A stretch of 64,000 nt of DNA from a virus. Shown one piece after another: positions 5,457 to 41,178 of the stretch. Location of the stretch: the IMG/VR virus record IMGVR_UViG_3300045988_118310, positions 1 to 64,000 of that record. One strand, 5' to 3'. A program made the translations under genes and the position numbers. The notes beneath the pieces were generated by a model. The model saw only the letters and a program-made list of their open reading frames with translations. It searched no databases and was not told the origin of the DNA. The first letter of the stretch is position 1. Every line of letters starts with the position of its first letter.

Positions 5457-5954
5457 TTAGTTCTCCTTCCACAATACAATTTCATTCTTTTTCATACTCT
5501 GTTTGACATCGATCACTCTTTGATTGCGGCTGCCAGCCCACGGCAATGAAATATCGCGCTGGGCTTCGATATATGGACCATCCACCAGAACGTCCACATA
5601 CTTCAGGTGATTCCAATCTTTGATATCGTCCCACTCGTAGCCAGTCCACATCCAGATATCTTTGGCGTCGCCAAATTCTTTGCGGACACGCGCACAGATA
5701 TAACCGACGATGAGGCGATTCTGAACAAATAATGGGTCTCCCCCGCTGAATGTCAAACCGCGAATGTAATTTGGACGAAGCAGATCTAGCAGTTCTTGCA
5801 TTGTATCTTCGACAAATGGAATACCAGCGGCCGCGTTCCATGTAGTAGGATTCTGACAGCCGGGACAATGATGATCACAACCCTGCACGAAAAGTGTGAC
5901 GCGCACCCCTTCGCCATTTGCTATATCACAGGGAACAATTTTAGCGTAGTTCAT
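5457..5954 (-). CDS. nrdG: anaerobic ribonucleotide reductase activating protein (radical SAM)
   Basis: CDHHCPGC cluster near N-terminus; located with nrdD. Confidence 0.75.
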   Translation of the reverse strand: MNYAKIVPCDIANGEGVRVTLFVQGCDHHCPGCQNPTTWNAAAGIPFVEDTMQELLDLLRPNYIRGLTFSGGDPLFVQNRLIVGYICARVRKEFGDAKDIWMWTGYEWDDIKDWNHLKYVDVLVDGPYIEAQRDISLPWAGSRNQRVIDVKQSMKKNEIVLWKEN

Positions 5955-6334
5955 TTAATGCCCTCCATTTTTGCCCCACAATAGGGACAATACTTAAAAG
6001 GCTTGTATTTCTCAGAGCCGATACAAGGTGTCTCGCGCGGATAGAAAAAATCTTCGTAAAACTGTTCGTTGCAATTAGAACAATGATATACAGAGTCTTC
6101 TTCGTCATCGCACGGCCAGTGATCCCAGTGTGCAATAGCACGAACTGTATTAGATTCTGCTTTCGGAAGCCCTAATAGGTCTTCGCGTTCTTCTGCTAGG
6201 AAATCGGAATAGTCATCTCGTTCGTCATAAAAGCGCATGTGCTTCAAGCCACTGTCAATTTCGTCTAGTAAAGGAGTGATATCCGCCCATTGAGCGTTTT
6301 CAGGAATATATTTCGCCATCTTGAACCACCTCAA
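5951..6334 (-). CDS. hypothetical protein with C-terminal zinc ribbon
   Basis: CSNCN...CPYCG. Confidence 0.4.
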   Translation of the reverse strand: MRWFKMAKYIPENAQWADITPLLDEIDSGLKHMRFYDERDDYSDFLAEEREDLLGLPKAESNTVRAIAHWDHWPCDDEEDSVYHCSNCNEQFYEDFFYPRETPCIGSEKYKPFKYCPYCGAKMEGIK

Positions 6335-18366: not shown

Positions 18367-21300
18367 TCAATGCTTTTCTGAAAATTCTTTCCGTAAAAAT
18401 TCCTTCAAGAACGTCCGCTTGTATGGCACCCTCGAAGTCTTTACAGCCCGATCAAGAGCATGAGTTTCGGCGCAAATCACACAATACTTCTTGGCACGAG
18501 TAATGGCCGTATAGAGCCATTCTCTCGTCAGCATCAGGTATGCAGAGTTGTCCATACCAACAATCACATACGGAGCCTCACTGCCCTGTAGTTTATGACA
18601 ACTTAAAGCATAAGCAAGTTCAAGCGTTGCCCAGATGTTATTCCCACCAAAGTAATGCGGAATGAAGATCGTTCCCCATTGGTCAAAATCAACCAGAATA
18701 AAACTAGTCTCAATCTTTCGGATAATGCCACGGTTTCCGTTGAACACCGGACACTTCTCTTCCTTTTTCTTTGTCTTGAGATTGTATGTGTGAAGTTCAT
18801 AATTGTTCTTGTTGATAATGACTTGATCGCCCTCACGCAGAGTATACACTCTATCCTTGCCATCACCATAGATTGTGACCTTTGCTTCTGCTTGACCACG
18901 ACTCGGATTCACAATTTCCTGAATAGCATTATTGACTTCATAAGTACAGATACTACCACGCAGCTTCTGTGGAAGTACAATCTGAATCTTCGCACTATCA
19001 TTCCCTACCTTATTATATAAGGTACGGTACTGATTGATGATGTGATTGAATGACTCACTTGCATCTTTATAGATATCAAGCTCCAAATCACGAAGTTCAC
19101 CACGAATCTCACTACCAGCCCAGCCATAAGGCACCAATTGCGTAGCATTGCGAACCTTGATGCTCTCCGTGATAATTGCAGACTTAGCTGCCTGACGATG
19201 GATCTTAGTCAACCGAGCCACAGGAACAACCTTAGATGCAAGCATATCCTTGAAAATGTTACACATACCGATGCTCTCAAGCTGTCCGTCATCACCAATC
19301 ATGATGAATCGCTTTCCGGTCTCGATTGCCTGAATCAAGTCATAGAACAACTGAGCTCCAACCATAGATGTCTCATCCAGAATGATAATATCTTCTTCAA
19401 GAGGATTGTCCTTGTTATGAATGAAACCACCATTCTCAATATCATAACCAAGAAGACGATGAATGGTCTTCCCGTCCTGACCAGTAATCTCCTGCATACG
19501 AGCTGCGGCACGTCCAGAGAGTGCAGTCTGAGCGAAAGACTTACCGTGAAGGACCTTTAGAACACCAGCGACAACGGTACTTTTACCGGTGTTGCCTGTG
19601 ACACAAATTCTTCCATTATATCTTATCAGAAACATATGAGACGGAACCGTAAAACAATACTTATATCCATCGCTTGAACGAACAATATCAATATCGCTTT
19701 TACTGCCTTTTGTCATAAGAGAAACTTTTCCATTCGAGTGTTGCACAATATGAACATTATACTCTGTGACCATTCTACCGTGCCGTTCAATATTTGATTC
19801 ATGTACAACAGAACGATAACCACAAGAAGAAAATGCGAACTGAACAAAATCTGCCGTTTCTTTAATCAGTGTACTAAAATCTTTCCGTCTCCCCTCTTTT
19901 ACGTGACCGTCCCAATTTAGAATCTCATCGCAAATCACCTCTAGCTGATGATGATTACAGCTATACCAATACGAAGTAAATCTTTTTTCTTTTCTTGGAG
20001 CATAAAAGACAAAGTTCGAATATTCCAAGTCTTTTGGATTCCACTGATGCTCATCAAAGTATCTACCACTTTCCAAAAGAAGTCTTCTCATGCGAAGTTT
20101 CTTTCGCTCTTTTTTTACGTTTACTCTACACCAAGCTGATTTATGATCCTTCAAAAACGACCCATCGCAAATAACAGCACACATTAGTCTAATATCAGCA
20201 TCGCTCAAATCGATTCCTGGACCATCATAATTGAACGTTGTTATAAAATGTCCGTTAAACCCAGACTTTCGTTTAACATTTCTTTGATACAACTCCCACA
20301 TTGGGATTTTAGCTAAATTGTTTTTGCTGGTCAAGTAAACAACATTATGCTCTGCACTCAATAGTTGATTGATACTGCCCGACTTGTTTTTCATGTGATA
20401 TAGATATTCACATTTAAATTTTACATATTTCTCAGGCTCAACAAGCGTTGTAGTCCCATTTTCATTATATTGAAGAACTTTGTCGCCCTTAACATAATCT
20501 TTTATTTTTTTCCATTGGATACCATTAAAGAACTCCATCTCTGCATCAAGGCATCCGCCGTAACCTGTTAAGATACAGACGTTGCTAGAGCATACCTTTT
20601 TAATAGCATCTCTCTGCTCTTCAGTGTACTCGATACCAAGTTCATCCTCGGCCTCATTGATTGCTGCATCCATATTTCGACCAATCGGCTCAACAGGAAC
20701 ATCCGCCAGACGCTTGATTTCCTTCGCAATACTATCTTCCAGATTCCACACTCTAGTTAAAGCAAATTCCTGACGGTCATCGCTCCACCAAAGCGTTTCA
20801 CGAGCATCATGCAAATGGAAAAGTGCCCTTTTGATGACTTCTTGGTCACCCTCATTCAAATCAAGTTCCTTAATACAGCTATTGATTGTCTGGTTTGCCG
20901 AGATGATAGAGTTGCCTTCTTCGGCACGGCCAGCAAGAAAGTGCATGACGTAAGCTTCAATTCTAAATTGCGAATTGTGTTTCAACCCCATATTCAGAGC
21001 TAGAGCGTCAGCCTTCTTCCAGCCGATGCCATACACATCGTCAATCAGGACGTAAGGATTCTCTTCAATCTTTCTCACCAGAGTGTCTGCACCATGATAT
21101 TGACGGACAAGCTTTTCAATAGCACTAGGGGTCAGACCGTACTCAATTAGCTTTGTGTACGCATCACTGTTATCAATGTTGTTTTCATAAGTATCAATGA
21201 TCTTTTGAGCTCTGCCTTCCGTAATACCACTAACAGTGCAAAGCGACTTGATATCACCATTCTTGATAATCTCATACGGATTTTCGAATGCTTCATAAAG

Positions 21301-21660
21301 TATCTCAAACTGATGGTCGGTCAGGATATAATGGAGAAAGCTTTTCTGTTCTTCCGGGTCAGTAATCTCTTGAAACTCATTCATATAAATGATTTTATAC
21401 TGGTCACCAAACTTTTCATGATGAACATACTCACCACAGAACGAATAAGTTTTATTCATATCGAGGCTAGGAACGTTGCCCTTTAACCGGAGGTCACTGT
21501 ATCGACTCATAACAGGATTTCCCTGCTTGACTTTTACCACCTCGGCAGAGAAAGTGGCGAAGCCGCCGGGCTCCACCTCCCTCCCATCTTTCGGATAAAA
21601 GACTCGTTTTATCCTGATGTAGCAACGGATCATATTTTCATTGAATTTTTTATCTGCCAC
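18367..21660 (-). CDS. RecD-like SF1B DNA helicase interrupted by an intein
   Basis: helicase motifs ILDETSMV, HKLQGSE, LYTAITRAK; Walker A split as LTGYGG|C...N|TGKST. Confidence 0.8.
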   Translation of the reverse strand: MADKKFNENMIRCYIRIKRVFYPKDGREVEPGGFATFSAEVVKVKQGNPVMSRYSDLRLKGNVPSLDMNKTYSFCGEYVHHEKFGDQYKIIYMNEFQEITDPEEQKSFLHYILTDHQFEILYEAFENPYEIIKNGDIKSLCTVSGITEGRAQKIIDTYENNIDNSDAYTKLIEYGLTPSAIEKLVRQYHGADTLVRKIEENPYVLIDDVYGIGWKKADALALNMGLKHNSQFRIEAYVMHFLAGRAEEGNSIISANQTINSCIKELDLNEGDQEVIKRALFHLHDARETLWWSDDRQEFALTRVWNLEDSIAKEIKRLADVPVEPIGRNMDAAINEAEDELGIEYTEEQRDAIKKVCSSNVCILTGYGGCLDAEMEFFNGIQWKKIKDYVKGDKVLQYNENGTTTLVEPEKYVKFKCEYLYHMKNKSGSINQLLSAEHNVVYLTSKNNLAKIPMWELYQRNVKRKSGFNGHFITTFNYDGPGIDLSDADIRLMCAVICDGSFLKDHKSAWCRVNVKKERKKLRMRRLLLESGRYFDEHQWNPKDLEYSNFVFYAPRKEKRFTSYWYSCNHHQLEVICDEILNWDGHVKEGRRKDFSTLIKETADFVQFAFSSCGYRSVVHESNIERHGRMVTEYNVHIVQHSNGKVSLMTKGSKSDIDIVRSSDGYKYCFTVPSHMFLIRYNGRICVTGNTGKSTVVAGVLKVLHGKSFAQTALSGRAAARMQEITGQDGKTIHRLLGYDIENGGFIHNKDNPLEEDIIILDETSMVGAQLFYDLIQAIETGKRFIMIGDDGQLESIGMCNIFKDMLASKVVPVARLTKIHRQAAKSAIITESIKVRNATQLVPYGWAGSEIRGELRDLELDIYKDASESFNHIINQYRTLYNKVGNDSAKIQIVLPQKLRGSICTYEVNNAIQEIVNPSRGQAEAKVTIYGDGKDRVYTLREGDQVIINKNNYELHTYNLKTKKKEEKCPVFNGNRGIIRKIETSFILVDFDQWGTIFIPHYFGGNNIWATLELAYALSCHKLQGSEAPYVIVGMDNSAYLMLTREWLYTAITRAKKYCVICAETHALDRAVKTSRVPYKRTFLKEFLRKEFSEKH
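19591..20553 (-). other. intein (~321 aa) with LAGLIDADG-type homing-endonuclease motifs inside the helicase P-loop
   Basis: starts with Cys after GYGG, contains SAEH (block B-like) and LMCAVICDGSF / FVQFAFSSCGY, ends ...VTGN followed by T; excision restores GYGGTGKST. Confidence 0.6.
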
Positions 21661-21672
21661 TTTATAACCCTC

Positions 21673-24600
21673 TTACGCTATCTCTCTATCATGCAGCCAC
21701 TGCTTATAAGGCTTCATCTTCTCAACAATGTACGAATTTTCTTTTCTCTTGCAAAGGATTGCAAGATCGTTACCCTTTGAAATCAGACTTGAATATCGTG
21801 CATACTGAGATGCCCAACAAATCATTTCGACAATACCACCTGTCGTGTAAACATGTAAGTACGCAAACTGGTTGCCACGTTTATCCTTCTTTTTTTGGAT
21901 ATCTACGATGACACAAATAGCAGTTGCCTTACCGCCATCCTCTACAGTATCAAGACCAGCATCAATATAGGTGCAAGCATCCTTAATGGGATTGCTAGTC
22001 AAAAACATTGAAAGAGTTTCAAATTCCCACATGTGCTCGTCTTGCATATACTTTTCAGCAAACGCCTGCATAAATGCATTCCGCTTTTTGTCTTTTTCTT
22101 TCTTTCGATTCCATGTGCCCGCTTCCCAGCGCTCCCTTCTTACCTTATTATATAAGGCAAGTCTGGTTGGTTTGTCTTTAACAGAGTCCGTATCAATGCC
22201 GTATTCGTCTTTAAGAATGGAAATCTTAGGGAGAGACGCCATCTCATGGAATCCTTTCTCTTTATACTCATTCTCAAAAACCATATTTGCAAAAGTGATT
22301 AAGATTTTTTTCTTATCCTTTGTCGGGATAGCGCCAGCCTTAATCAACTTGACAACATTTGAGGTTCCAATCTTACCACCGTTTGCTCTCTGAACAAAGT
22401 CTGCCAGTCCAGAATATGGACGGTCTGCAATCACTCCTGAAGCGACACTCTCACCCATTCCCTTAATGGCTTTCAAACCAAACAGGATTGTGTGCTTTTC
22501 CGCATCAGCCTTAAATTCCATATCAGACTTGTTGACACTTGGAGGAAGGACACGAATATGTAGACGGTCGCATTCGTTGATAAACACACCCATTTTGCCA
22601 GAATCGTCTTCCTTGGTAATCATACACGCAGCCATGAAATACTCAGTATAATGAGTTTTCAGGTAAGCCGTCAGGTAAGAAAGAAGTCCATACGCAACTG
22701 CGTGGCCTCTATTAAAGGAATAAGAAGCCTGCTTCAAGATTAGTGCCCACATCTCAGAAATCTGGTAATCATTCCATCCTTTCTTGTGAAGACCATCTCG
22801 GAACTGAACTTCCAAGGATGCCATAACATCTTTCTTTTTCTTGCCGATAGCACGACGAGCATTGTCAACCTCAGTTTCAGGGAATCCTGCATAGCGGAAT
22901 ACCGCTAGTGCCTGTTCCTGATAAAGAAGAATGTATTGCGTCTTAGCAAAAAGCTGTTTGATGTCAGGATGGAGTAGTTTGATAGTCTCTGGATGAAGTT
23001 TATTGGAGCAATACGTCGGGAAGCTGTCCTTAGTACCAGGACGATTCGCTGCGTTCACAACAATGATATCCTCAGCATTATCGCACTTTGCTTCAACACA
23101 CATCTTTCGTGCTTCTGCAGATTCCATCTGGAAAATGCCAATTGTGTTGCCCGACTTGTAGACGGTATCATAGACAGCCTTATCACTTAGATCAAGATGG
23201 TTGATATCGACATCTTCCCATGTTAATCCAGCCATCTTTAACGTATCGTCAATAATGTCCAGATTCTCAAGACCAAGGAAGTCCATCTTGACCAGCGACA
23301 AATCATCCATGGCATTGTGCATCTCAAGTTGGCACATCTGATTGCCTTCTCTGTCCATACAAAGAGGACAATATTCAATGACAGGCTTGGGCGTAATCAA
23401 TGTACCGGCAGCATGGCGACCCATACTCTTAGGCAGACCCTCAAGACGCATAACGTATTTGAACCATAGAGGAAACTTGTCATATACATTAGAAAGCTGT
23501 TCACTCTTTCCGAGGATATCCTTTAGTAGAACTTCCTTTTCAACTTCTTCGCCAAGATCATCCAGCGTTTTTACAGTCGGAATTAACTTGGCGACCTCAT
23601 TACGTAATTCATACGGAATCTGCATATAATACGGGCTTTCTGGGTCTTCGTTCAGAACTTTGCCAATATCTTTGATGGCAACTTTTGTAGACAAAGAGTT
23701 AAACGTAGCGATAGGAGCAACATTTTCTTTGCCGAAAAGTTCTTCTGCAATAGCAATAAGTTCCTTTCGACGACGTTTAGAGACATCGAAGTCGAAGTCG
23801 GCCAGGCTCTTTCTACCTTTGTTTGCAAAGCGAGAGAAGTCAAGATCCCAACGAACAGAGTCAATCTGAGTAACATTCTCCATAAAAAGGCAAAGACAAT
23901 TTGCGCCAGAACCACGAGAGTACCCACGAGGAATTTTGCGTTCATCAGCCTTTTTGCAAAGCATATACAGCATAATGAAATAGTCAATATAATCAACATA
24001 CTTCAAAACATCCAGTTCCATCTCAATACGATTCCGCCGGGTTTGCTGTTCCACTTCACTCATCCACCCGAATTTTTTATTAAAAGTGGCATATACAAGG
24101 TGCCGAAGATAATCAAAATGAGAATCAAATTTTCCCTCAATTTTCACTTCTGGCATCTGGTTCGGCTGTCCAAGACCGATATCGATATCATCAATCATGT
24201 CTGCGATTTTCACAGACATCTCACAGCCTTTTTTGATAAAGTCCTCATCAAACTGCTTTGATAGCGTTCTCAAAACATCGTTTTCAGTCTGAAGATAGCA
24301 GTCAACGTAGCTTTCACCAACTTCTCGGCCTTCTCCAATCTCAACAAAGACAGAGTGTGCATCAATATCTTCTTTAGAAAGCATGTGAGCATCGGTCGTA
24401 ATGGTATACGGCAAGTCGTATTTCCTAATAAACGCCGCAATTTTTGCATTGGCCTCAGCTTGATCTGGCGTATCATGTGACTGTACTTCCATAAACACGT
24501 CATCAAAGATCCATTCCAGTTTGTTCCATAACTGCCATGCTTCAGTCTCGTTGCCATCAACAAGTAATCTACTCATTCGACCAACTTGACAGGCTGTAAG

Positions 24601-25017
24601 ACAGATGATACCTTTACCCCACTCGTTCTGTTCAATAATGTTCAAAGAAGTTCGAGGCTTTTTATACATACCATCAACGCAAGCATTTGAAACAATCTTA
24701 AATAGATTTTTTAAACCGGTCTCGTTCTTTGCTAGTAAAACAAGATGGTAACGAGGTTGTTTATAGTCTTTTGTATCGGCTTTCTCTGCCTGATTATCTA
24801 CTTCATAGACTTCACAGCCGATGATAGGCTTAATACCTGCTTCCTTGCAAGCCTTAACTTGGTCAACAAAAGAGTGCATTTTTCCGTGGTCTGTAACCGC
24901 GATTGCTTTCTGGCCATTTTCTTTGGCAAAGTTTACAAGTTCCTTGACGGTAAGAATAGAGTCAAGTAACGAACCCTGCGCTGTATGTACATGAAGATTT
25001 ACAAAATTATCTGACAT
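21673..25017 (-). CDS. dnaE: DNA polymerase III alpha subunit (DnaE-type)
   Basis: 1114 aa; N-terminal PHP domain (NLHVHT...), Pol IIIalpha core. Confidence 0.8.
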   Translation of the reverse strand: MSDNFVNLHVHTAQGSLLDSILTVKELVNFAKENGQKAIAVTDHGKMHSFVDQVKACKEAGIKPIIGCEVYEVDNQAEKADTKDYKQPRYHLVLLAKNETGLKNLFKIVSNACVDGMYKKPRTSLNIIEQNEWGKGIICLTACQVGRMSRLLVDGNETEAWQLWNKLEWIFDDVFMEVQSHDTPDQAEANAKIAAFIRKYDLPYTITTDAHMLSKEDIDAHSVFVEIGEGREVGESYVDCYLQTENDVLRTLSKQFDEDFIKKGCEMSVKIADMIDDIDIGLGQPNQMPEVKIEGKFDSHFDYLRHLVYATFNKKFGWMSEVEQQTRRNRIEMELDVLKYVDYIDYFIMLYMLCKKADERKIPRGYSRGSGANCLCLFMENVTQIDSVRWDLDFSRFANKGRKSLADFDFDVSKRRRKELIAIAEELFGKENVAPIATFNSLSTKVAIKDIGKVLNEDPESPYYMQIPYELRNEVAKLIPTVKTLDDLGEEVEKEVLLKDILGKSEQLSNVYDKFPLWFKYVMRLEGLPKSMGRHAAGTLITPKPVIEYCPLCMDREGNQMCQLEMHNAMDDLSLVKMDFLGLENLDIIDDTLKMAGLTWEDVDINHLDLSDKAVYDTVYKSGNTIGIFQMESAEARKMCVEAKCDNAEDIIVVNAANRPGTKDSFPTYCSNKLHPETIKLLHPDIKQLFAKTQYILLYQEQALAVFRYAGFPETEVDNARRAIGKKKKDVMASLEVQFRDGLHKKGWNDYQISEMWALILKQASYSFNRGHAVAYGLLSYLTAYLKTHYTEYFMAACMITKEDDSGKMGVFINECDRLHIRVLPPSVNKSDMEFKADAEKHTILFGLKAIKGMGESVASGVIADRPYSGLADFVQRANGGKIGTSNVVKLIKAGAIPTKDKKKILITFANMVFENEYKEKGFHEMASLPKISILKDEYGIDTDSVKDKPTRLALYNKVRRERWEAGTWNRKKEKDKKRNAFMQAFAEKYMQDEHMWEFETLSMFLTSNPIKDACTYIDAGLDTVEDGGKATAICVIVDIQKKKDKRGNQFAYLHVYTTGGIVEMICWASQYARYSSLISKGNDLAILCKRKENSYIVEKMKPYKQWLHDREIA

Positions 25018-38967: not shown

Positions 38968-41178
38968 TTATTCGTGCCGATTCTCATAGAATTCATTCCG
39001 AAGCTGAATGATGTTCTTTTTGCAGAACGATTCGTGATCGGCATCATTCTGTTGTCTCATCCATCCGTAGAAGTTGTTGTCTTCTGCGGTGAACAATTTT
39101 GAGGTGTGTTCGTAGTATCCACGCTTTTGAACGCTCTGCATAACACTACGCAAGAATTTCCAGTGCTTATAGCAAGGAAGCTTCAGCTTAAACATGAAAT
39201 TGTTGTTATCTCTCAAAACAAAGCCTTCAACGTGTTTAAAGCCATGATGCAGATAGTTCTCGTTCATGACTTCCTCGTACCAAGGATAGAATTCACGCCA
39301 GTTCTCAAAGGTCTTAACCTTCTCCTTAATCTGCAGATGACACTTCTCGGCTACACGCTTCAAATCATCATAATCCATTACACTGAAATTCATATCATTT
39401 GCAATAATATCCAGCAAAACAACGTGCGGTTTCTTATATTCGATGATATGCGCATCATTCACAGGATCAATCACCTCGAAGATGATGGAGCCATTCTCTT
39501 TTGCAAATTCTTTCAGATTCTTACGGTCTTCATCAGAAGTCGTATCCATGAGAATCTTTCGAAACATATCTGCAAAAGGCCCTTCAGGAGTGGATTTACT
39601 TGCAATGAACAGACTATCCTGTTCTGCATCATACGAAATGATACCAAGAAATCCGTTCTCTTTTAGATATGCAGTCACCGGGAACTTCAAAGTGTTCTGT
39701 AGGTTTCCAATTCTCGTTTCATTCCGCTCATCAACCGCAAAGAACTTATCATAGCTTCGAGCTACAATCTTATTCGTCTTTGTGTTAATGAACAATCCCC
39801 TTGCTTTGGTAGAAACCTCATCCCAGTGCTTCTTATAAAATGCTTCACGAGAGAAGTTGAAAGAAGAAATATCTCCGAATCGCTTCTCAAACACATATTT
39901 GCTTTGACGCATCTTACTAACAAGTTCTGCGTTATCGAACTCAGTTTTCAGTTCAACGACAGTTTCAGTCTTTGGCTCCTCTTTTTGGAACACATCGTTC
40001 TTGGTTTCTACACACTTGATTGACTGACCGTGTTCAAGTTCCACGCAACGAAGATATCCACCAAACTCGATTTTTCCTTCGAGGTTGTAGCACTGATGCC
40101 CCATATCAATAGGAACATCCTGCACATTTCGATGTCCAAAGATTTGGAAACATCCGTCAGGCATCTTTTGTTCCCATGACTCTGCGACAGTGAGCATGTC
40201 AGAGTAGCGGCCAACACCCTTTACCATCTGGTCAGTAGACACGAACGGTAGAAATTCAGGCAAATAACTCAAACCACCATGGCTAACGAAGTATCTTTTA
40301 TCATCGTAATCAAAATAGGAGCACTGTCCTACTCTTGAATAGACCTTACGAGCCGTATTATGGTCAATCCCTGCTTTAAAAAGCTGCGGACGAGTGTAGT
40401 TTGTAAATTCCTCACTCTGAACCGGCTCGTCATGACCCCACTTGTTTAGCCACCGTTCATGATTTCCTTCAAGGAGAATTACATTCTTCCGATTATTGTC
40501 TACAACATCACAAAGGAACTTGAACATCTCTACATTTTCAATTCCACGATCCAGATAATCGCCAACAAAAATGTACAGCTCATCGTCCTTCAGGTCTCCA
40601 AGGTACTCTTTCAGGCAACTGTAGCATCCATGCACATCACCGATGATATGAATTTTGCTCCAATTATTAAAATCCTGCGGAACATAGTTCAATTTTTCAA
40701 GGACATTGACATCCGACGAAAGCACAGTCACTCCAGACGGAATTTTTTGTGTTGCGAATCGTGCATACATCTTATCAATGACAGCATCTGGAACTCTCTT
40801 CAGTGGGGCACGGAGCGAATTGCGCCGCTTGCACTCATCAATCGGCAAGCCCGTCATGTCAATGATGTACATTCTGTACCTGTACTGCTTGGCGAGGTTC
40901 TTGTAGCGATTGATTTCGACCGTTTTAGAATTCGTTGCATCGATCACGGTGAACTCACCATGAGACATCCGAACCTCCAACAGCTTAAAGAGCATATCCC
41001 AGACAACATCATCGTTCTGGGGAGAGATTTCCATTGTGCCAGCCGGGGTTTCCTGACCACCCTGGCACATAAGACGAATCGTATCTGCACTAAGCGTATA
41101 CTTTTCCAGATCATGCTCTTTAATATAGGGGGACTTCCCGCATCCGGGTGCTCCACGGAAAAGAAGCAAAGTTCTCAT
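38968..41178 (-). CDS. Pnkp-like polynucleotide kinase - metallophosphatase - ligase (RNA repair enzyme)
   Basis: P-loop GAPGCGKS + VIDATN (kinase); GDVHG, GDYLDRG, GNHE (calcineurin-like phosphatase); KENG, FEVID, EGFVL, FKLK (nucleotidyltransferase ligase motifs I, III, IV, V). Confidence 0.75.
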   Translation of the reverse strand: MRTLLLFRGAPGCGKSPYIKEHDLEKYTLSADTIRLMCQGGQETPAGTMEISPQNDDVVWDMLFKLLEVRMSHGEFTVIDATNSKTVEINRYKNLAKQYRYRMYIIDMTGLPIDECKRRNSLRAPLKRVPDAVIDKMYARFATQKIPSGVTVLSSDVNVLEKLNYVPQDFNNWSKIHIIGDVHGCYSCLKEYLGDLKDDELYIFVGDYLDRGIENVEMFKFLCDVVDNNRKNVILLEGNHERWLNKWGHDEPVQSEEFTNYTRPQLFKAGIDHNTARKVYSRVGQCSYFDYDDKRYFVSHGGLSYLPEFLPFVSTDQMVKGVGRYSDMLTVAESWEQKMPDGCFQIFGHRNVQDVPIDMGHQCYNLEGKIEFGGYLRCVELEHGQSIKCVETKNDVFQKEEPKTETVVELKTEFDNAELVSKMRQSKYVFEKRFGDISSFNFSREAFYKKHWDEVSTKARGLFINTKTNKIVARSYDKFFAVDERNETRIGNLQNTLKFPVTAYLKENGFLGIISYDAEQDSLFIASKSTPEGPFADMFRKILMDTTSDEDRKNLKEFAKENGSIIFEVIDPVNDAHIIEYKKPHVVLLDIIANDMNFSVMDYDDLKRVAEKCHLQIKEKVKTFENWREFYPWYEEVMNENYLHHGFKHVEGFVLRDNNNFMFKLKLPCYKHWKFLRSVMQSVQKRGYYEHTSKLFTAEDNNFYGWMRQQNDADHESFCKKNIIQLRNEFYENRHE

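Follow-up and report, generated by a model that had tools for sequence, protein, structure and literature searches.

The 64,000-nt stretch of viral DNA analysed here (IMG/VR virus record IMGVR_UViG_3300045988_118310, positions 1 to 64,000; the window) carries a helicase gene whose ATP-binding loop is interrupted by a long in-frame segment, raising the question of whether this segment is an intein, and whether it may still splice and move, or belongs to the helicase itself. An earlier note, made from the sequence alone, had proposed that a LAGLIDADG-type intein splits Walker A of a RecD-like helicase. This placement was exact to the base and was borne out by the fold, the empty alleles, the occurrence in unrelated host proteins, and the junction residues, which together with the conserved catalytic residues, the filled alleles, and an intein sequence that has diverged less than its flanks support an intein at this site. 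The insert is thus, with high confidence, a full-length and probably active intein composed of a Hint domain with a nested two-motif LAGLIDADG endonuclease and interrupting Walker A of a RecD2-like phage helicase. It is a genuine element and apparently still mobile.

Host helicase gene and its interruption

The full Pfam set of the helicase (OB, HHH, 1A/2A ATPase, SH3, and UvrD_C) was found in the interrupted reading frame, the matching families being OB_YrrC, HHH_RecD2, AAA_30, AAA_19, SH3_13, and UvrD_C_2. The NCBIfam model TIGR01448 (RecD2) scored 464.3 bits over two stretches with the insert and 489.5 bits over one stretch without it; since the latter score is just below the equivalog cut-off of 500 bits, the helicase is named RecD2-like. 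The insert, 963 nt in length and corresponding to residues 370–690 of the helicase ORF, consisted of 321 codons in frame, with no stops and no frameshifts. It split the Walker A loop, the junctions reading ...NVCILTGYGG/CLDAEME...GRICVTGN/TGKSTVVAG (here and below, a slash marks an insert boundary or an insertion point). Taking out the insert restored GYGGTGKST, as the earlier note had stated for the removal of about 321 residues, and gave a protein of 776 aa matched by TIGR01448 in a single stretch. The GC content was 35.7% in the intein versus 43% in the exteins. The coordinates of the features are listed in Table 1.

Searching the window by tblastn with the intein revealed no second copy, and Pfam scans of ten other large ORFs of the window revealed no other inteins. 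The whole helicase gene had no match by megablast among 50,697 phage records, indicating that it has no close cultured relative in that set.

Table 1. Features of the interrupted helicase gene and its intein (positions in the window)
Feature	Position	Strand	Remarks
Precursor ORF, RecD2-like SF1B helicase split by intein	18367..21660	-	GTG start, 1097 aa
N-extein, residues 1–369	20554..21660	-	Ends ...ILTGYGG (first half of Walker A)
Intein, 321 aa, Cys1 to Asn321	19591..20553	-	Translation, exact indel, AF2 model, Foldseek
N-terminal Hint lobe, intein residues 1–107	20233..20553	-	DSSP all-beta over 1–104
Block A with Cys1	20515..20553	-	
Block B, S66-x-x-H69 (SAEH)	20335..20376	-	
LAGLIDADG homing-endonuclease domain, monomeric two-motif, intein residues ~108–271	19741..20232	-	
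LAGLIDADG motif 1, DADIRLMCAVICDGSF	20155..20202	-	Helix 118–130 (…VICDG), catalytic Asp130
LAGLIDADG motif 2, HHQLEVICDEILNWDGHV	19900..19953	-	Helix 201–215 (…LNWDG), catalytic Asp215
Helix 231–243, KETADFVQFAFSSCGY	19816..19863	-	Second endonuclease half, not a LAGLIDADG motif
C-terminal Hint lobe, intein residues 272–321	19591..19740	-	
Block F, YKYCFTVPSHMFLIRY	19618..19665	-	Cys300 at F:4, His306
Block G, RICVTGN	19591..19611	-	
Thr+1 codon (ACC)	19588..19590	-	C-extein nucleophile
C-extein, from Thr+1, including stop codon	18367..19590	-	TGKST..., remaining Walker A and helicase core

Splicing domain and junction residues

The AF2 model of the intein had a pLDDT of 94.4 and a pTM of 0.92. 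Its top PDB matches in Foldseek were TliVMA (E 2e-15), PI-SceI, PI-PfuI, PhoVMA, and PI-TkoII, and the probability of 1.00 against the inteins TliVMA, PI-SceI, PI-PfuI, and AceL NrdHF showed that the Hint fold is present. Among 146 relatives, Cys1, His69 (B:10), Cys300 (F:4), and Asn321 were invariant, whereas Arg311 (145 relatives), Thr319 (G:5; 139), and Gly320 (G:6; 135) were nearly so. The start with Cys and the end in Asn, which had been pointed out before together with the Thr that follows, were seen in the window copy and are shared by the family. The residue at +1, Thr here, was Cys, Ser, or Thr in all 146 relatives; because of this the element is not of the bacterial intein-like (BIL) type, which is marked by a missing +1 nucleophile. 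Position B:12 was occupied by Val71 in the window copy and by Val, Ile, Leu, Met, Phe, or Cys in the 146 relatives, never by Trp.

The penultimate His (G:6), a residue common but not obligatory in inteins, was absent from the window copy, which possessed Gly320. The earlier note had read this Gly correctly, but its suggestion of a decaying intein did not hold. Gly is the norm in the family, with a T-G-N C-terminus in 129 of the 146 relatives, and functional inteins lacking the penultimate His are documented. The Bethlehem RDF intein, with a penultimate Gly, splices completely, and the AceL NrdHF intein, which ends in T-G-N and has neither C-terminal His, reaches half-completion of splicing in about 4 min and loses its activity upon the change G145H (PMC7891396). 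Since inteins ending in this way splice well and Gly is usual among the relatives, the penultimate Gly is not a mark of decay.

Position F:4 was occupied by Cys in place of the Asp usual in class 1 inteins. Sequence comparison of the C-terminus of the window intein with solved inteins found nothing, and a 38-position family profile of the C-terminal blocks gave chance matches only (E > 0.6). As these blocks were not alignable to a solved intein, the F:4 assignment is based on the spacing from Cys300 to Asn, 21 residues here versus 20 to 22 in proven class 3 inteins, and on the block-F sequences of two other inteins. The latter, VFDLTVPGPHNF in Ssp DnaB and VYDIGVERDHNF in Npu DnaE, were compared with KYCFTVPSHMF here, giving Cys at F:4.

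Searches with curated models, a check that the earlier note had proposed, did not recognize the window copy: no Pfam family was matched at E ≤ 1, NCBIfam gave only a spurious 17-bit match to YcgN, and phmmer against the PDB gave no match at E ≤ 10. Among 29 relatives, Pfam Intein_splicing matched one (E 0.011). The fold and the junctions are intein-like, and the absence of matches stems from how little of intein diversity the models cover; a family comprising 2,000 or more protein clusters escapes those of Pfam.

Endonuclease domain

An alpha-beta-beta-alpha-beta-beta topology occurred twice in the endonuclease domain of the AF2 model (DSSP), and Foldseek matched this central domain to I-DmoI and I-Tsp061I. 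The catalytic Asp130 of the first LAGLIDADG motif was kept in 143 of the 146 relatives. The true second motif was EVICDEILNWDGH (D215), lying in the helix of residues 201–215 with the sequence QLEVICDEILNWDG; its Trp214 and Asp215 were found in 145 and 141 of the 146 relatives, respectively. Of the motifs named in the earlier note, SAEH (block B) and LMCAVICDGSF (the first LAGLIDADG motif) are real and conserved, whereas FVQFAFSSCGY, although conserved, was misassigned as a LAGLIDADG motif. It lies in a later helix (residues 231–243), which comes after the beta-hairpin trailing motif 2 (DSSP) and has no conserved acidic residue before its Gly. Pfam LAGLIDADG_3 was matched by 15 of 29 relatives (best E 2.6e-6) but not by the window copy.

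Filled and empty alleles

In a blastn comparison with a related metagenomic contig bearing an empty site (L005), the alignment stopped at window position 20554 and restarted at 19590. Within 28 nt on each side of the insertion, the two sequences had 3 differences, all synonymous. The insert was an exact indel relative to both this contig and another contig with a variant site (L004). At the protein level, the intein-less homologue P0040 was 776 aa in length, exactly that of the spliced product, and 95% identical to the helicase, and the intein-bearing homologue P0039 was 1097 aa in length and 97% identical. The intein-less allele sought in relatives was therefore found, both as the empty site of L005 and as P0040.

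Of 120 RecD2 homologues listed, 63 had a readable Walker A context, and among these the loop was uninterrupted in 61 and carried the insert in 2. Among these homologues the segment is thus no conserved part of the helicase; its presence in all of them was the outcome that the earlier note had named as refuting an intein. ExoV of Thomasclavelia phage TR-TP1 reads SPAGTGKTT with no interruption, and the insert is exactly missing in near and remote orthologues alike.

The empty site of the L005 type has the sequence …ACAGGCTACGGCGGA/ACTGGCAAAAGTACC…, and the variant site of the L004 type reads …ACAGGTCTTGGTGGA/TGCGGCAAAAGTACC…. The differences of L004 clustered at the insertion site, and a co-conversion tract borne by the intein was considered as their source. 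This reading was rejected because the sequence on either side of the intein in the filled allele, SSNVCILTGYGG/TGKST, represents the common, ancestral-looking state among the intein-less homologues, and the L004-type site, SNNIAIVTGLGG/CGKST, the derived state. The window and its metagenomic relatives provide a natural snapshot of the homing cycle, with a filled allele, an empty one that shares its flanks, and an empty one that is abundant and has a diverged site.

Spread of the intein family

Full-length homologues of the insert were found in 180 phage records, and the insert module occurred in at least 2,051 protein clusters at E ≤ 1e-3, 524 of them at E ≤ 1e-30, a distribution far beyond chance. 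The host proteins in the phage records were RtcB, primase/helicase, PhoH, TerL, RecD, and other helicases, and those in the metagenomic set included Terminase_3, dNMP kinase, guanylate kinase, IstB/DnaA-type ATPase, PhoH, T2SSE, DnaB, and dNK; DnaC/IstB-like ATPases and nucleotide kinases were also among the unrelated hosts. In unrelated proteins the copies were always bounded by Cys at the start and by Asn followed by Cys, Ser, or Thr at the end. The insertion site was nearly always G/xGK, x being Cys, Ser, or Thr, with GK following 133 of the 146 full-length copies. The phages carrying the family infect gut Firmicutes (Enterocloster-type), Vibrio, Staphylococcus, Bacillus, Pseudomonas, and Acinetobacter. 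The intein in the DnaB-like helicase of Enterocloster phage CB473P1 shared 78% identity with that in RecD of phage PMBT24. Apart from the intein, these two host proteins are unrelated.

Between the window and another intein-bearing allele (L006), dS was 0.061 in the intein versus 0.31 and 0.35 in the two exteins. The intein value, approximately five-fold below that of the helicase sequence on either side, indicates recent homing. The intein dN/dS was 0.17, a value derived from only 19 substitutions. The low dS shows recent spread, though it is no proof of present endonuclease activity in this particular copy. Strong purifying selection on the exteins between the two intein-bearing alleles was also considered as proof of splicing but was set aside as weak evidence, since most of the extein divergence predates the intein.

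Predicted splicing and homing

By the chemistry of the family, splicing would begin with a 1097-aa precursor in which the ATP-binding loop is broken by the insertion between Gly369 and Thr370. Folding of the Hint domain would bring the two splice junctions close, and Cys1, aided by Ser66 and His69 of block B, would turn the peptide bond between Gly and Cys into a thioester, from which the hydroxyl of Thr+1 would receive the N-extein. Cyclisation of Asn321 would then set the intein free, and an O-N shift would rebuild GYGGTGKST in a normal 776-aa helicase. The usual penultimate His being absent, its role is probably taken by His306 of block F and/or the near-invariant Arg311; with no such His and with Cys, not Asp, at F:4, the assisting residues named are guesses.

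The freed intein would act as a LAGLIDADG endonuclease through Asp130 and Asp215. During co-infection, intein-less DNA coding for the P-loop would be cut, and the intein would be copied into it by recombinational repair. As the target codes for the near-universal G-x-G-K-[ST], the intein family may also move among unrelated P-loop genes.

Alternative explanations

The same intein might instead splice by a class 3-type or hybrid route, a reading considerably less probable than the class 1-type scheme above. Here Cys300 would attack the N-terminal junction, instead of or besides Cys1, and a putative branched thioester at block F would pass the N-extein to Thr+1. Cys at F:4 (146/146) with Thr at G:5 (139/146) is a class 3 feature, the spacing from F:4 to Asn is within the range of proven class 3 inteins, and the Hint-only family profile had as its sole sequence match in the PDB the class 3 intein AceL NrdHF (E 9e-7), which was also the top-ranked Hint-only chain in Foldseek. 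AceL likewise has S-x-x-H, a residue other than Trp at B:12, C-x3-P in block F, T-G-N, and Ser/Thr at +1, and WCT inteins that start with Ser1 or Cys1 are on record. However, class 3 is defined by the absence of the N-terminal nucleophile, whereas the window copy and all 146 relatives have Cys1, an invariance unexpected if it were dispensable. Moreover, B:12 is Val, Ile, or Leu and never Trp, and Cys at F:4 also occurs in known class 1 inteins, which are polyphyletic. An improbable reading, though one with some points in its favour, is that the intein is kept as a conditional post-translational switch of the helicase and is not purely selfish; for example, reversible oxidation of Cys1 and Cys300 or metal binding by them might hold the P-loop broken until conditions suit. 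The two invariant cysteines are predicted to lie at the active site, and with its ATP-binding loop interrupted the precursor must be inactive. Furthermore, P-loop inteins of mycobacterial DnaB responding to oxidants and zinc are documented, and phage-specific tuning of the penultimate residue has already been proposed in the literature. Selfish homing, however, fully accounts for the polymorphism of filled and empty alleles and for the low intein dS, and the conserved endonuclease residues point to selection for mobility, not domestication.

That the intein is decaying or inactive, with a non-functional helicase or a dead endonuclease, is very unlikely. The missing penultimate His, the lack of a match between the window copy and any Pfam intein model, and the absence of an acidic residue in the second-half helix where the second motif had been placed could all be read in this way. 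Nevertheless, Gly at G:6 is normal for the family (135/146) and has functional precedents, all catalytic positions are intact in the window copy, in the splicing domain as well as in the endonuclease, and the 963 nt are free of stops and frameshifts. The intein dN/dS of 0.17 and a dS five-fold under that of the flanks point to recent spread, and the family is found in replication and packaging proteins across hundreds of phage lineages. There is hardly any chance that the insert is a lineage-specific helicase domain that stays in the mature protein, or that it is some element other than an intein (for instance an intron, or an endonuclease gene of its own that is read through), in spite of its being in frame and of the lack of intein annotation in the related GenBank records. 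The insert is missing from alleles of 95–96% identity that share its flanks, so the reading as a non-excised domain is already refuted by the empty alleles. It also occurs in unrelated proteins with the bounds Cys...Asn/Cys, Ser, or Thr and has a Hint fold, and a Walker A loop parted by 321 residues is unable to bind ATP. A search of positions 19000..21200 against Rfam gave no intron or other RNA family, only noise (E 0.94).

Implications

An intein that probably splices from Cys1 remains the preferred reading, and it belongs to a well-known kind of selfish element, P-loop inteins of phage replication proteins being already well documented; current understanding is unchanged by the window intein. 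For annotation, the helicase is to be entered as a 776-aa RecD2-like enzyme and a 321-aa intein, and related phage genes in GenBank, designated as 'hypothetical protein' or 'exodeoxyribonuclease V', hold the same element unannotated. As a compact intein with a penultimate Gly, Thr at +1, and an endonuclease predicted to target DNA coding for the P-loop, it could have practical interest as a tool.

Invariant Cys1 together with Cys at F:4, the Thr-Gly-Asn end, and the lack of Trp at B:12 are the marks behind a further, tentative proposal, which is doubtful at present. The family, large and uncurated, may be a living class 1-type lineage that gave rise to the AceL-type (non-WCT) class 3 inteins through loss of Cys1, or may itself operate as a two-cysteine relay, in which the thioester would pass from Cys1 to a branched thioester at Cys300 and then to the +1 residue. 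If either were true, the family would stand between the chemistries of classes 1 and 3 as a natural intermediate, combined with a P-loop-targeting endonuclease family hopping among unrelated ATPase genes.

Comparison with known inteins and endonucleases

The inteins of mycobacteriophage TerL1, bacterial and archaeal DnaB, MCM, and RFC are situated, as here, in the Walker A of replication and packaging ATPases. Many such inteins are phage-borne with LAGLIDADG endonucleases, RecD is listed among the intein-bearing helicases, and in phage class 1 inteins the penultimate His is often swapped for Gly, Lys, or Ser (Kelley et al. 2016, PMC5050341; Novikova et al. 2016, PMC4760082). The classic P-loop site is GK/T, at the Lys/Ser-Thr boundary, whereas the window family is inserted two residues upstream, at G/xGK, and no sequence link was found between this family and the P-loop inteins of TerL1, DnaB, MCM, and RFC.

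The endonuclease domain resembled I-DmoI, also a monomeric two-motif enzyme, over about 175 aligned columns (TM to target 0.54–0.61, E ~1e-5), both having two LAGLIDADG helices that end in an acidic residue with Gly after it. I-DmoI, however, is intron-encoded and free-standing, whereas the window domain, with 15–17% identity to it, is internal to an intein.

The class 1 structures PI-SceI/VMA1, TliVMA, PhoVMA, PI-PfuI, and PI-TkoII possess the same arrangement of a Hint domain split by a two-motif LAGLIDADG endonuclease and have Cys1, the C-terminal Asn, and a +1 nucleophile in common with the window intein. In Foldseek they matched it with E 2e-15 to 3e-8 and TM to query of 0.54–0.67, although the sequence identity was only 10–13%. 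The window intein is more compact, 321 aa versus chain lengths of 361 to 537 aa, with no apparent extra DNA-recognition region like that of PI-SceI. It differs further in having Gly for the penultimate His and Cys for Asp at F:4, and its family resides in phage P-loop proteins, whereas the hosts of the class 1 structures are V-ATPase, RNR, or polymerase.

AceL NrdHF-1-1 (PDB 6ZGQ), which alone among PDB sequences was matched significantly by the Hint-only profile of the family, shares with the window intein S-x-x-H in block B, a hydrophobic residue other than Trp at B:12, Cys at F:4 with Pro four residues on, T-G-N at the C-terminus, and, probably, an origin in phages. Its residue at B:12 is Met (Hoffmann et al. 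2020, PMC7891396). It has Ala1 and is a proven class 3 intein, whereas Cys1 is invariant in the window family; it is split in nature, a free-standing GIY-YIG gene lying between its two parts, whereas the window intein forms one continuous stretch that contains a LAGLIDADG domain. The block-F His present in the window copy (His306) is absent from AceL NrdHF, and the AceL host, NrdHF, is interrupted outside a P-loop, unlike the helicase of the window. The family's invariant signature of Cys1, Cys at F:4, and T-G-N forms a link between class 1 inteins of the ordinary sort and AceL NrdHF, an atypical class 3 intein.

Host gene and insertion site

Translation of the precursor ORF (Table) gave a helicase interrupted by an insert reading CLDAEME…GRICVTGN, preceded by …NVCILTGYGG and followed by TGKSTVVAG…; the earlier note had given its coordinates, its initial Cys, its final Gly-Asn and the Thr that follows (+1) exactly. 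Outside the insert, Pfam domains OB_YrrC, HHH_RecD2, AAA_30/AAA_19, SH3_13 and UvrD_C_2 made up the full set of a RecD2-type SF1B helicase. TIGR01448 matched the precursor in two stretches (464 bits in total) and the 776-aa product without the insert in one (profile positions 27–711 of 713, 489.5 bits); since the latter score falls slightly below the equivalog cut-off of 500 bits, the host was named "RecD2-like".

Pfam scans of the window ORFs showed the surroundings to be a phage replication module, with genes for NrdD, ATP-dependent ligase, RecD2, PolIII alpha, RecJ, C5 methylase and a Pnkp/RNA-ligase fusion; an Rfam scan around the helicase/intein region found nothing. The PolIII alpha gene, which adjoins the helicase, is an indel among close relatives: it was present in the window and in the related contigs L005 and L006, and in a third contig, L004, its 3.3 kb region was replaced by ~270 bp with a 76-aa ORF (5714–5986), the two edges aligning at about 90–93% nt identity. 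The fusion protein combined an AAA_33 kinase, a metallophosphatase and a T4 Rnl1-type RNA ligase and, together with the RtcB intein hosts of other phages, points to RNA-repair genes in this phage group.

Features of the intein, its host gene and neighbouring genes; residue conservation was counted over 146 full-length relatives
Feature	Window position	Strand	Intein residue(s)	Remarks
Precursor ORF	18367..21660	-		1097 aa
Intein	19591..20553	-		precursor residues 370-690; 963 nt, stop-free
L004 codons 359-371 (corresponding positions)	~19585..19590 and 20554..20586			
PolIII alpha gene	21673..25017	-		1114 aa
Pnkp-ligase fusion	38968..41178	-		736 aa
A:1			Cys1	same in 146/146
B:7			Ser66	same in 118/146 (Cys 18, Thr 10)
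B:10			His69	same in 146/146
LAGLIDADG helix 1			118-130	DIRLMCAVICDG; strand directly after
LAGLIDADG helix 2			201-215	QLEVICDEILNWDG; strand directly after
F:4			Cys300	same in 146/146
Block F			Arg311	same in 145/146
G:5			Thr319	same in 139/146
G:6			Gly320	same in 135/146
G:7			Asn321	same in 146/146

Empty and filled alleles

With the conceptually spliced helicase as query, the metagenomic representative P0040 (95% identical, cluster of 2,046 sequences) had exactly the spliced length of 776 aa and no insert, and P0039 (1097 aa, 97% identical, cluster of 348 sequences) carried it. The Walker A context was readable in 63 of the best 120 RecD2 homologues, the loop being uninterrupted in 61 and filled in two (P0039 and another representative, P0081). 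Flanks CSSNVCILTGYGGTGKST were identical in several fragments of 95–96% identity, and the flanks of the filled allele were the common state among RecD2 homologues. The loop was likewise uninterrupted (SPAGTGKTT) in ExoV of the cultured Thomasclavelia phage TR-TP1. At the DNA level, the alignment of L005 (121.6 kb) with the window stopped at 20554 and restarted at 19590, so the indel corresponds exactly to 19591..20553; just three differences, all synonymous, lay within 28 nt on either side. L004 also had an empty site, in a gene of 2331 nt, the length of the spliced window gene, with 91.9% identity. Thus, the intein-less allele that the earlier note had proposed to look for occurs in P0040, L004, L005 and TR-TP1, and the intein reading withstood the objection that all homologues might carry the segment; these alignments show it to be an insertion and not a helicase domain. 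The RecD ORF of L005 (5001–6713) ended at residue 570 with an unrelated 25-aa tail, ~340 nt from the contig end, probably reflecting an assembly end or chimera and not biology.

The most abundant empty allele, that of L004 and P0040, had a diverged insertion site, SNNIAIVTGLGG|CGKST (GLGG|CGKST). Around the insertion point, codons 359–371 of the L004 gene (6001–8331) showed 15 nt differences, an identity of 0.80 versus 0.92 gene-wide, which makes this site a candidate cleavage-resistant allele.

Fold and endonuclease domain

As a single sequence, the window intein gave nothing useful against Pfam, NCBIfam and PDB sequences; Pfam LAGLIDADG_3 matched 15 of 29 intein relatives, the window copy itself remaining unmatched. 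With 29 family sequences as input, AlphaFold2 gave a model (mean pLDDT 94.4, pTM 0.92) whose top Foldseek matches in the PDB were endonuclease-containing inteins, namely TliVMA (E 2e-15), PI-SceI, PI-PfuI, PhoVMA and PI-TkoII, followed by I-DmoI and I-Tsp061I, which matched the central 175 residues. According to DSSP, residues 1–107 and 272–321 formed all-beta Hint lobes, between which an alpha-beta-beta-alpha-beta-beta unit was repeated twice. The first LAGLIDADG motif had been placed correctly in the earlier note, in the helix ending at Asp130 (kept in 143/146 relatives; Asp215 in 141/146), whereas FVQFAFSSCGY, proposed as the second, lay in helix 231–243, which serves packing in the second half rather than catalysis.

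Splicing residues and mechanistic class

The penultimate Gly, previously read as a possible sign of a non-canonical or decaying intein, is a family trait and not decay, because Gly320 prevailed among the relatives, and spliceable precedents exist. In mycobacteriophage class 1 inteins, Gly, Lys or Ser often replaces the penultimate His, and the Gly-penultimate Bethlehem RDF intein splices completely, more slowly with G316H (PMC5050341). Neither of the two C-terminal histidines is present in the AceL NrdHF intein, whose last residues are T144-G145-N146; its splicing half-time is ~4 min, and G145H inactivates it (PMC7891396). A block-F His, a residue able to substitute for the penultimate His (PMC5050341), was present in the window copy (His306, in PSHMF) and in 48/146 relatives.

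The AceL NrdHF intein, a class 3 intein, was also the single significant match of a Hint-only family profile among PDB sequences (E 9e-7); the C-terminal splicing blocks gave nothing significant against the PDB. It shares with the family S-x-x-H in block B, a small hydrophobic residue instead of Trp at B:12, Cys at F:4 with Pro four residues on, and the T-G-N end, and the F:4-to-Asn spacing of 21 residues in the family compares with 20–22 in proven class 3 inteins. These likenesses point to a class 3-like or relay mechanism, which is nevertheless rather unlikely: class 3 inteins by definition lack the N-terminal nucleophile (PMC7891396), whereas Cys1 was invariant here. The intein was therefore classed as putatively class 1-type, with the invariant cysteine assigned to F:4 as its unusual feature.

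Distribution of the family

Megablast against phage genomes found nothing. By tblastn, full-length homologues of the insert (30–46% identity) occurred in 180 phage records, in RtcB RNA ligases, primase/helicases, PhoH-like proteins, large terminases, RecD and other helicases; the phages were those of Enterocloster, Vibrio, Staphylococcus, Bacillus, Pseudomonas, Acinetobacter, Escherichia, Klebsiella and Tenacibaculum. A PHROG of PhoH-like proteins matched the insert over its whole length (E 6e-47). Among metagenomic proteins, the module was hosted by Terminase_3, dNMP kinase, guanylate kinase, IstB/DnaA-type loaders, PhoH, T2SSE, DnaB and deoxynucleoside kinase. HMMER, run exhaustively over 1.84 billion representative proteins, retrieved 2,051 at E<=1e-3 and 524 at E<=1e-30. 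By protein length (~1,050–1,120 aa) and insert position (~residues 350–700), many of the best matches appear to be RecD2-type helicases that carry the module in the equivalent place. All 146 full-length copies began with Cys and 129 ended in T-G-N; the next residue was Cys (81), Ser (56) or Thr (9), followed by GK in 133. These copies form an intein family that targets the G|xGK[ST] position in Walker A loops and, now and then, another site, as in RtcB.

More than one hmmsearch domain was seen in 40 of 149 representative carriers (P0159–P0307), with three stretches in P0166 and two in P0169, P0184 and P0239; these may be several related inteins per host or split matches. GenBank records no intein feature in the intein-bearing DnaB-like helicase gene of Enterocloster phage CB473P1 (L001 2347–4818, "hypothetical protein") or in the intein-bearing RecD gene of phage PMBT24 (L003 1936–5262, "exodeoxyribonuclease V"). 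In Staphylococcus phage PhiSepi-HH3 (MT880872.1 78229–82062, 3.8 kb), the recD annotation consists of two genes, recD21 and recD22, with a "hypothetical protein" between them; this is another interrupted phage RecD gene, of no assigned type.

Evidence for mobility and proposed mechanism

Filled and empty alleles coexisted at 95–97% protein identity; no second intein copy was found within the window. Between the window and L006, both filled, intein DNA was 98.0% identical (dS 0.061; dN/dS 0.17 over 19 substitutions) versus 93.2–93.4% for the exteins (dS 0.31 and 0.35 for N- and C-extein), and mismatch density rose again within ~30–50 nt of both junctions. This makes the intein several times younger than the helicase gene, as would be expected under homing into already diverged alleles. 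The inteins of the CB473P1 DnaB-like helicase and the PMBT24 RecD were 78% identical in unrelated host proteins, and those of the window and PMBT24 RecD were 48% identical versus only 28% for the exteins, which implies movement between P-loop genes. GC content was 35.7% in the intein versus 43% in the exteins. Together, these sequence comparisons are evidence for an intein mobile now or recently.

The analysis shows the insertion, its fold, the conservation of its residues, the allele polymorphism and the unequal divergence of intein and exteins; the splicing chemistry and the cutting of DNA are inferred. In the proposed scheme, the precursor would be translated with a split Walker A loop and should be inactive. 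Ser66 and His69 would help Cys1 through an N-S shift; the N-extein would then pass to Thr+1, Asn321 would cyclise, with His306 and Arg311 as candidate helpers, and GYGGTGKST would be restored by an O-N shift. Once excised, the intein would cut empty P-loop-coding sites of co-infecting genomes via Asp130 and Asp215, and repair would then copy the intein into the cut site.

Comparison with known inteins

It is established that inteins occupy the P-loops of replication and packaging ATPases, that they abound in phages, that RecD can be a host and that the penultimate residue need not be His (PMC5050341, PMC4760082). Mildly new are the size of an intein family missed by curated intein models, its invariant double-cysteine/T-G-N signature together with its connection to AceL NrdHF, an atypical intein of class 3, and the clean natural snapshot of the homing cycle around the window. 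In contrast to the "classic" P-loop insertion site, GK|T (PMC5050341), the site of this family lies two residues upstream.
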